Below, in pieces: positions 56,527 through 58,864 of a stretch of 64,000 nt of DNA (its first letter is position 1; each line of letters begins with the position of its first letter). The notes beneath the pieces are model-generated. The model was not told where the DNA came from and did no database searches. It worked only from the letters and a program-made list of their open reading frames with translations. Source of the stretch: Escherichia coli 042 (GTDB lineage: Bacteria > Pseudomonadota > Gammaproteobacteria > Enterobacterales > Enterobacteriaceae); NCBI RefSeq assembly GCF_000027125.1, contig NC_017626.1. One strand, given 5' to 3'. A program made the translations under genes and the position numbers.

Positions 56527-56704
56527 TTACCCCGTTAATACATCAATTCCTAAATATTTGAAAATTTCCTGACAGTTTCTACAGTTCGGAAAAGCACTTC
56601 CATCACCAGTATGAACTGTAGCCATTTCCAAATCATGCAACGATGAATTATCTTTGAGAGCTTTATTCACCGCATCTATTTCAGCACAATTATTAACAGC
56701 CCAA
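56527..56704 (-). pseudogene. truncated C-terminal toxin domain with nucleotide deaminase-like motifs
   Basis: Native ~59 codons after the IS boundary: ...NNCAEIDAVNKAL...(33 aa)...AFPNCRNCQEIF..., i.e. a [C/H]AE helix plus CxxC pair with deaminase-fold spacing; the 5' part is replaced by the H-repeat. Confidence 0.5.
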
Positions 56705-57218
56705 GGCAAGATTACGAAAGCCCGCACCCCGCAAGGACTGCCGCCAGGTAGTTTCTGTCCATGGCTGCTTTTCGCATCTTACGTCTTAACCCTGCCTTGA
56801 ATACCTTATCATTCGTTAAAATATTAATAGCGATGTGCCGTATCCCTGAAAATAATTCTGCGGCGTTTCCTCTTCTTATTTTGCAGTCGTCTTCATTCAT
56901 TACCACGTCCAGACGCCAGTGCAGCTTATTCTCCACGTGCCAGTGGTTTCGGATTGCTGTGGCGAACTTCTCTGCGGTTAAATCAGCAGAACTGATATAA
57001 TATCTGACCGTCATTTCTGGCTCTTTCTTTTGTTCTGCTATTATTGACCGAAAGGAGACTGCCACGCATAATTTCTTCAGACCTTTCCATTCAAACGTGA
57101 AATCAATAAGTTCATCAGGGACATCGCAAACAATGTGAAGACGGATTTCTTCTCTGCCGTGACTCTTTTCACTCATTGCGTAACTGTTATGCTCTGGATT
57201 ATTGGTAATGACTCCAAC

Positions 57219-57722
57219 TTATTGATAGTGTTTTATGTTCAGATAATGCCCGATGACTTTGTCATGCAGCTCCACCGATTTTGAGAACGACAGCGACTTC
57301 CGTCCCAGCCGTGCCAGGTGCTGCCTCAGATTCAGGTTATGCCGCTCAATTCGCTGCGTATATCGCTTGCTGATTACGTGCAGCTTTCCCTTCAGGCGGG
57401 ATTCATACAGCGGCCAGCCATCCGTCATCCATATCACCACGTCAAAGGGTGACAGCAGGCTCATAAGACGCCCCAGCGTCGCCATAGTGCGTTCACCGAA
57501 TACGTGCGCAACAACCGTCTTCCGGAGCCTGTCATACGCGTAAAACAGCCAGCGCTGGCGCGATTTAGCCCCGACGTATCCCCACTGTTCGTCCATTTCC
57601 GCGCAGACGATGACGTCACTGCCCGGCTGTATGCGCGAGGTTACCGACTGCGGCCTGAGTTTTTTAAATGGCGGAAAATCGTGTTGAGGCCAACGCCCAT
57701 AATGCGGGCGGTTGCCCGGCAT
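57219..57722 (-). CDS. insB: IS1 InsB
   Basis: 167 aa, overlapping insA in the -1 frame as in IS1. Confidence 0.9.
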
Positions 57723-57916
57723 CCAACGCCATTCATGGCCATATCAATGATTTTCTGGTGCGTACCGGGTTGAGAAGCGGTGTAAGTGAACTGCAGTTGC
57801 CATGTTTTACGGCAGTGAGAGCAGAGATAGCGCTGATGTCCGGCGGTGCTTTTGCCGTTACGCACCACCCCGTCAGTAGCTGAACAGGAGGGACAGCTGA
57901 TAGAAACAGAAGCCAC
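57641..57916 (-). CDS. insA: IS1 InsA
   Basis: 91 aa with N-terminal zinc-finger Cys pairs (CPSC...CSHC). Confidence 0.9.
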
Positions 57917-58864
57917 TGGAGCACCTCAAAAACACCATCATACACTAAATCAGTAAGTTGGCAGCATCACCTGGATTATTTAATTCTTTCAGTGGGAATT
58001 TTTCCTCGAAGGCTTTATTTAGCCGCCCCTGGTTTCTTTTTACAGCGAATAAATAATCACCGCCCTGTTTTTGTATCTTCTCTGCAATATCTTTCTGGCA
58101 ACCCATCGTATCAGTTGTGATGATTTTTCCTTTAATATCCAGCATGTTAAGAAGTTATGGGATAGCTGTAATCTCATTAGATTTCTCATCCGTCTTGATC
58201 TGTCCGATGACCAGACTGTGCATTGTTGAGAACGCACTAATGACATGAATCGCTCCCCTGCGGCGACTCTTGTCATAATAGTGCCGGAGCGTTTTTCCAT
58301 CAATTGCGATGACGTCTTTATCATCTGAAGTATGGCAATCTCGCATCCAGTTAATAAAGCACTCGTGAAATTTTGCAGGACTGATACAGGATACAACTCT
58401 GGCAATGGTATCGTGGACAGGCATACCATTTTCAAAATCACCATATTGCTTCAAAAAATCGATATGTGTTTCACCAAAATCCTCTATATCTTCCCAACCT
58501 TCTGCACCCGAAATAACGGCACAAATAGTCAACAGTAGAATATCCGATAATTTATGTTCCACTTTCCAGGCTTGTCTGTAATCGGGGGTAATAGAAATAT
58601 GTTCCATCAATTTTTTAAGTTCCATTTTTTTCTCCTTAATTATGTAAGGAGTATTTGATCATGTATAAGCAATAAAAAACAGCTTCAGGTAATGAGGAAT
58701 ATCTCAATTTTTAAACATAAAATGCGAATTATTTAGTACAAAAAAGCAGCGTTACGTGATCTTTCCCTGACAGCAAACTGAATACAGAAACATATTGGTT
58801 GGAAATGCTATTTGACAGCAGATCCCGGTGGGCCTGCCACCATCTCTTCACAAGCTTATGCTTA

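Follow-up and report, generated by a model that had tools for sequence, protein, structure and literature searches.

A complete IS1 nested within an already broken H-repeat of Escherichia coli 042

A stretch of 64,000 nucleotides of Escherichia coli 042 (contig NC_017626.1, hereafter the window) carries two H-repeats, copy 1 and copy 2, that lie in the same orientation and bracket 860 bp, and the body of copy 2 is interrupted by an IS1 element. This arrangement raises the question of whether the interruption is a genuine insertion, by which route and in which order relative to the decay of its host it came about, and whether it has any consequence for its surroundings. The analysis presented here indicates that a standard 768-bp IS1 sits inside an H-repeat copy 2 that was already broken, and that the insertion is an ordinary, strain-specific one. 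The features on which this conclusion is built are collected in Table 1.

Table 1. Coordinates, within the window, of the two H-repeats, the nested IS1 and the neighbouring remnants.
Feature	Position	Strand	Remarks
H-repeat copy 1, full-length, 1291 bp, ISAs1 family	54551-55841	-	Uninterrupted reference copy
Copy-1 transposase ORF, intact, 378 aa	54561-55697	-	
Segment between the H-repeats, 860 bp	55842-56701	-	
YD-repeat-like fragment	55842-56045	-	Abuts the right end of copy 1; weak multi-register BLASTP matches to K-12 RhsB, best E = 0.003
SUKH-3 immunity gene	56063-56524	-	PF14433, E = 5e-12
Deaminase-like C-terminal remnant, 66-aa ORF	56527-56727	-	PF14431 YwqJ-deaminase, E = 3.5e-4, below gathering score
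Copy 2, left arm	56702-57203	-	3' part of the transposase pseudogene; ends in the left target copy
Left target-site duplication copy, 9 bp	57195-57203	.	TGGATTATT, read directly
IS1, complete, 768 bp	57204-57971	-	insA-proximal end IRL at 57971, IRR at 57204
IS1 end sequences			GGTAATGACTCC... at the 57204 side and ...GGCAGCATCACC at the 57971 side; sequence reading
IS1 ends, longer form			Starts GGTAATGACTCCAACTTATTGAT; finishes ...AAGTTGGCAGCATCACC
insB' frame, 167 codons, DDE catalytic part	57219-57722	-	PF03400 DDE_Tnp_IS1, E = 2e-78
insA, 91 aa, zinc ribbon and helix-turn-helix	57641-57916	-	PF03811, PF12759
A6C slippery site AAAAAAC	57659-57665	-	Programmed -1 frameshift to InsAB'
Copy 2, right arm	57972-58769	-	5' part of the pseudogene plus right terminal repeat GATCTTTCCCTG
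Right target-site duplication copy, 9 bp	57972-57980	.	TGGATTATT, read directly
Nonsense codon TAA, codon 157 of the copy-2 transposase	58155-58157	-	GAA in copy 1

The initial annotation of this DNA had described a complete IS1 flanked by a direct repeat, and direct reading of positions 54300-59200 bears this out: the insert at 57204-57971 measures exactly 768 bp, both IS1 ends are present, and TGGATTATT is found on its two sides. With 9 bp, this target-site duplication falls in the 8-9 bp range of the IS1 family, and the chance of a 9-bp match flanking an insert is ~4^-9 = 4e-6. Moreover, TGGATTATT occurs just once at the equivalent place of H-repeat copy 1, as it does at the empty sites of three further genomes, and the span 57204-57980 comprises the complete IS1 together with one copy of the duplicated target. 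The uninterrupted target that had been reported for copy 1 could be read as ...gctctggattatttaattc... at 55040-55058, the site equivalent to the insertion appearing there as ...ctctggattatttaattc... Regarding the host gene, the IS1 splits the H-repeat transposase at codons 216-218 (Asn-Asn-Pro), to which the 9-bp target corresponds and which lie within the DDE domain (Pfam PF01609 spans residues 102-343).

As a check on this reading, an alignment of 54551-55841 with the interrupted copy after removal of 57204-57980 had been proposed. Once copy 2 is taken as 56702-58769 minus 57204-57980, both copies are collinear from end to end, on either side of the IS1, with 96.4% identity over 1293 columns, which contain 42 mismatches and 4 gap columns, the gaps all being near one terminus. 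The coordinates originally given for copy 2 (56700-58769) hold at the right end, while its left end has to be moved to 56702.

The proposal that an H-repeat, an ISAs1-family element, is the host of the nested insertion is supported by transposase models and by identity with K-12 H-rptB. The copy-1 ORF scores 406 bits against the NF033564 ISAs1 transposase model (cut-off 70) and displays a PF13808 plus PF01609 architecture, while the DNA of copy 1 is 96.8% identical to H-rptB of K-12 MG1655 (the yhhI element) over all 1291 bp, the encoded protein differing from YhhI in 7 of its 378 residues. Copy 2 is also 1291 bp long upon removal of the IS1 and of one 9-bp duplication copy, and in that form (IS1 removed) shows 96.1% identity to H-rptB over positions 1-1291. 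Its left arm is 97.8% identical to positions 1-502 of copy 1, and its right arm ~96% identical to the same copy. The terminal inverted repeats of copy 1, CAGGGAAAGAT and ATCTTTCCCTG, match in their first 11 bases and differ at base 12. The left terminal repeat of copy 2 presents mismatches at positions 3 and 6, the latter position varying also in K-12. One change in this repeat is private to copy 2, which reads CAAGG where copy 1 and K-12 read CAGGG. H-repeat sequence is widespread in the species, being detected in 5,081 of the 5,426 complete E. coli genomes at a median of 4 places. The terminal 12-mer GATCTTTCCCTG also recurs exactly at 2992-3003 of the window, but no H-repeat homology surrounds it there, and this match was discarded as due to chance.

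In-register direct repeats are absent from the flanks of both H-repeats (54531-54550/55842-55861 for copy 1 and 56682-56701/58770-58789 for copy 2). This fits the reported lack of H-rpt transposition, which has not been observed, it being doubtful whether H-repeats ever transpose (PMC3032704). It was probably recombination, and not transposition into these sites, that brought or reshuffled the two H-repeats. The missing flanking duplication, typical of these elements, leaves their identification untouched, since the latter rests on 96-97% full-length DNA identity.

IS1 family members are 768 bp long, generate duplications of 8-9 bp and use an A6C frameshift to produce a 232-aa InsAB' (PMC12428005). 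Simulation of a -1 shift at the A6C site of the element in copy 2 likewise yields an open 232-aa InsAB'. Against the NF033558 IS1 transposase model, insA aligns with the N-terminal half at 90 bits, under the 100-bit cut-off set for the whole protein, and insB' reaches 143.8 bits, above that cut-off. Its terminal repeats are imperfect, with 18 of the first 23 bases matching. The left-end 23-mer is found once in the window and has zero matches in shuffled sequence, and the element at 57204-57971 is the only IS1 of the window.

Many E. coli chromosomes and plasmids carry copies that match this IS1 at 100% over its 768 bp; at ≥99% identity, copies are present in 6,293 records, and some genomes have them at 40 or more places. 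It shows 2 mismatches relative to K-12 IS1B/C and 7 relative to IS1A and is, judged by its sequence, IS1B-like. Length, terminal repeats, insA, insB', the A6C motif, the 232-aa InsAB' and the 9-bp duplication are all shared with K-12 IS1B/IS1C, from which no structural difference separates it, and its one novelty with respect to the genomes searched is where it has inserted. Considering its intact parts and the high copy number of identical elements, it is plausible that this IS1 could still move. Such mobility is not assured, since the K-12 IS1B/C type, just those two mismatches away, barely transposes in BW25113 (PMC12428005).

A 200-bp empty site was then reconstructed by joining 57104-57203 to 57981-58080. 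It occurs exactly in three other E. coli genomes, A10, EECO1006 and MS20675, and the empty-site allele at ≥99% identity accounts for 149 records among the 5,426 complete E. coli genomes, a figure close to the number of such genomes carrying the accessory island in which the locus lies, between nfrB and cusS (150). Comparison of the window with A10 and EECO1006 gave 99.9-100% identity for both flanks (54000-57203 and 57971-59300), right up to the junction. In each of these strains the two aligned blocks have 10 bases in common, made up of the 9-bp target and one further base, which means that the strain carries a single copy of the target. The uninterrupted allele of MS20675 matches the left arm of copy 2 at 100% identity and those of A10 and EECO1006 at 99.9%, within a longer aligned block, while 57971-59300 is 100% identical to that allele in EECO1006 and MS20675. 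The flanks of the IS1 are contiguous in these related strains, and non-contiguity was not seen.

The occupied site behaves differently. Among the matches listed for 120-bp junction queries against the 5,426 complete E. coli genomes, none is an intact IS1/H-repeat junction, and the exact 51-mer junction GCGTAACTGTTATGCTCTGGATTATTGGTAATGACTCCAACTTATTGATAG gave no match in the GTDB representative genomes. The 84 and 6 genomes that reached ≥80% coverage of the 120-bp queries do not contain real junctions; all but one of the matches listed consist of two separate pieces that were joined and span 180-600 bp, and the only single-piece match, in H70, is 92% identical over 127 bp and is not the real junction. 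The insertion is called private here in the sense of being absent from the two collections scanned, namely the 5,426 complete E. coli genomes and the GTDB representatives. Considering (i) the exact empty site, (ii) the contiguous flanks and (iii) the lack of the junction elsewhere, the insertion must be real, simple and, among the genomes searched, private to the strain.

Upon in silico removal of the IS1 and one repeat copy, the copy-2 transposase frame has 378 codons with a single stop (...EITAIP-stop) and 16 amino-acid differences from copy 1. The premature stop after EITAIP pointed out in the initial annotation is thereby located as a TAA at codon 157, and its description of copy 2 as doubly inactivated, by the stop codon and by the IS1, is a fair one. 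The same transposase is annotated with an internal stop in A10, EECO1006 and MS20675, all of them without this IS1, and the DNA across the stop in these three genomes is identical to the window. Since the stop codon is common to strains that do not have the IS1, the nonsense mutation is older than the insertion, so that the gene was dead by the time the IS1 reached it. This order of events, the absence of the insertion from the complete E. coli genomes (among the matches listed) and the assignment of the element as IS1B-like are what the present analysis adds to the earlier description.

The surrounding accessory island spans window positions ~51900-63560 and is carried by ~150 of the 5,426 complete E. 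coli genomes; in K-12, nfrB and cusS are neighbouring genes. Its content includes genes for a PAAR-like toxin, a WD40/beta-propeller protein, an HNH/EndoVII-fold toxin and SUKH-3, as well as several small hypothetical genes, and to the right of copy 2 the PAAR-like toxin, beta-propeller and HNH/EndoVII toxin genes are followed by cusS. Between the H-repeats, the fragment at 55842-56045 produced no Pfam RHS_repeat match, hence its label as YD-like only, and it may be what is left of an Rhs core. The 66-aa ORF at 56527-56727, whose weak deaminase match takes in a PNCxxC motif, extends at its 5' end into the left terminus of copy 2 and is directly followed by the SUKH-3 gene (56063-56524). The two look like an orphan toxin tip/immunity pair that the H-repeat has truncated.

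Orphan toxin tips and immunity genes are the usual setting of H-repeats, and those of the window, like the ones found in Rhs elements (PMC3032704), adjoin toxin-tip and immunity remnants. K-12 H-rptB (yhhI, next to rhsB; ISAs1 family, named ISEc1 by PGAP) has the same 1291 bp and the same terminal repeats. Unlike it, both copies described here are situated in the nfrB-cusS island with PAAR-like and HNH toxin genes, and neither lies downstream of a full-length rhs gene. They further depart from H-rptB in that copy 2 is a pseudogene, through its stop codon and its IS1, and in that neither copy has flanking direct repeats.

IS1 elements are also seen in the islands of other strains. EECO1006 has one, sharing 97.3% identity with that of the window, between the PAAR-like gene and a WD40 gene (L002, 9377-10145). 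In MS20675, an IS1 with 93.1% identity abuts the equivalent of window position 56562 (L001, 6001-6769), everything to the left of it being replaced by prophage genes. The insertions in these two islands are independent and involve different IS1 isoforms. The nfrB-cusS island appears to be an IS1 sink under erosion.

The explanation that best accounts for the locus, and which is held with high confidence, is that an IS1 recently entered a pseudogene by simple transposition, an event from which no phenotype is expected. In this account, two 1291-bp H-repeats first sat among orphan toxin/immunity remnants in the nfrB-cusS island. Copy 2 then gained the E157 stop, which is common to other island carriers, and lastly an active IS1B-like IS1 moved into codons 216-218 of the dead copy-2 transposase gene. 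IS1 integrates through staggered cuts made 9 bp apart, and their repair duplicated TGGATTATT. The perfect duplication and the 100% identity of the IS1 with widespread copies are consistent with a recent event, and the sequence comparisons suggest that the insertion is both recent and confined to the lineage of the strain. Most probably it is also selectively neutral.

Other routes to the same sequence were weighed against this transposition. IS1 is a multi-copy repeat and, as such, a classic cause of misassembly, but a false IS1 created by a repeat-induced misjoin would not show exact termini enclosed by a perfect 9-bp repeat of a target that the empty allele has only once, and the chance that the structure is an assembly artefact is judged negligible. 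It is also conceivable that the IS1 had entered another H-repeat copy and reached copy 2 by homologous recombination or gene conversion, H-repeats being multi-copy (median of 4 places per E. coli genome) and their copies 95-97% identical. Nonetheless, bases specific to copy 2 are found on both sides near the junction (57174, 57188, 58008 and 58020), over 200 bp the flanks are an exact match to copy 2 as it stands, uninterrupted, in other strains, and the junction is in no H-repeat copy of the genomes searched (among the matches listed for the complete genomes, and in the GTDB representatives), all of which makes such a transfer very improbable.

A different kind of alternative concerns the effect of the insertion rather than its origin. 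IS1 elements are polar and occasionally create hybrid promoters, and the one in copy 2 is located upstream of SUKH-3 and downstream of the PAAR-like toxin and beta-propeller genes, all of these being on the minus strand. The IS1 might therefore be functional, its polarity blocking read-through, or an outward or hybrid promoter altering expression of the orphan SUKH-3 immunity cassette. That it is so appears unlikely: the target gene was already dead by its stop codon, a scan of 55800-59300 for consensus promoters and terminators detected 7 sites versus 7.9 expected from shuffles, and the insertion is seen in one strain only, which gives no sign of selection. Little weight is likewise given to the broader view of a non-neutral IS1, which would either alter downstream SUKH-3 expression or represent the first step of an IS1-mediated erosion of the nfrB-cusS island; the background to the erosion reading is the independent IS1 insertions in the islands of other strains, with one IS1-bounded loss.

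With simple transposition into a dead gene as the preferred explanation, the locus exemplifies a known kind of event, with textbook elements and a textbook mechanism, and nothing but the site is new. IS elements are commonly found nested, and this insertion neither opens nor answers a biological question. It provides a clean example of nested ISs whose succession of events is directly legible, and it is of little importance beyond annotation. As it is absent from the 5,426 complete E. coli genomes (among the matches listed), the junction could serve to mark the strain or its lineage. In addition, the insertion adds one portable patch of IS1 homology to an island that is eroded by IS1 in other strains.

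A related arrangement was observed in P27_L1_05.20, where, in the O-antigen cluster region between galF and gnd, an H-repeat-like element of the ISAs1 family is cut short by an IS1 (L008, 2069-3333). That case is one of truncation or deletion, in contrast with the clean nested insertion of the window, which retains both arms and the target duplication. Candidates for a nested IS1/ISAs1 pair in BL21-type genomes turned out to be merely neighbouring elements ~0.8 kb apart, and a mobilome preprint contains no evidence on H-repeat or ISAs1 activity.

A sequence resembling an H-repeat end, GCTCTTTCCCTGACA, was also noticed at 58914-58928, that is, 145 bp past the right end of copy 2 and inside the ORF 58865-59176, in its 3' part. 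The 13-mer TCTTTCCCTGACA is common to this sequence and to the real end with its flank at 58760-58772; the sequence could be either a solo terminal-repeat remnant or a preferred junction sequence.
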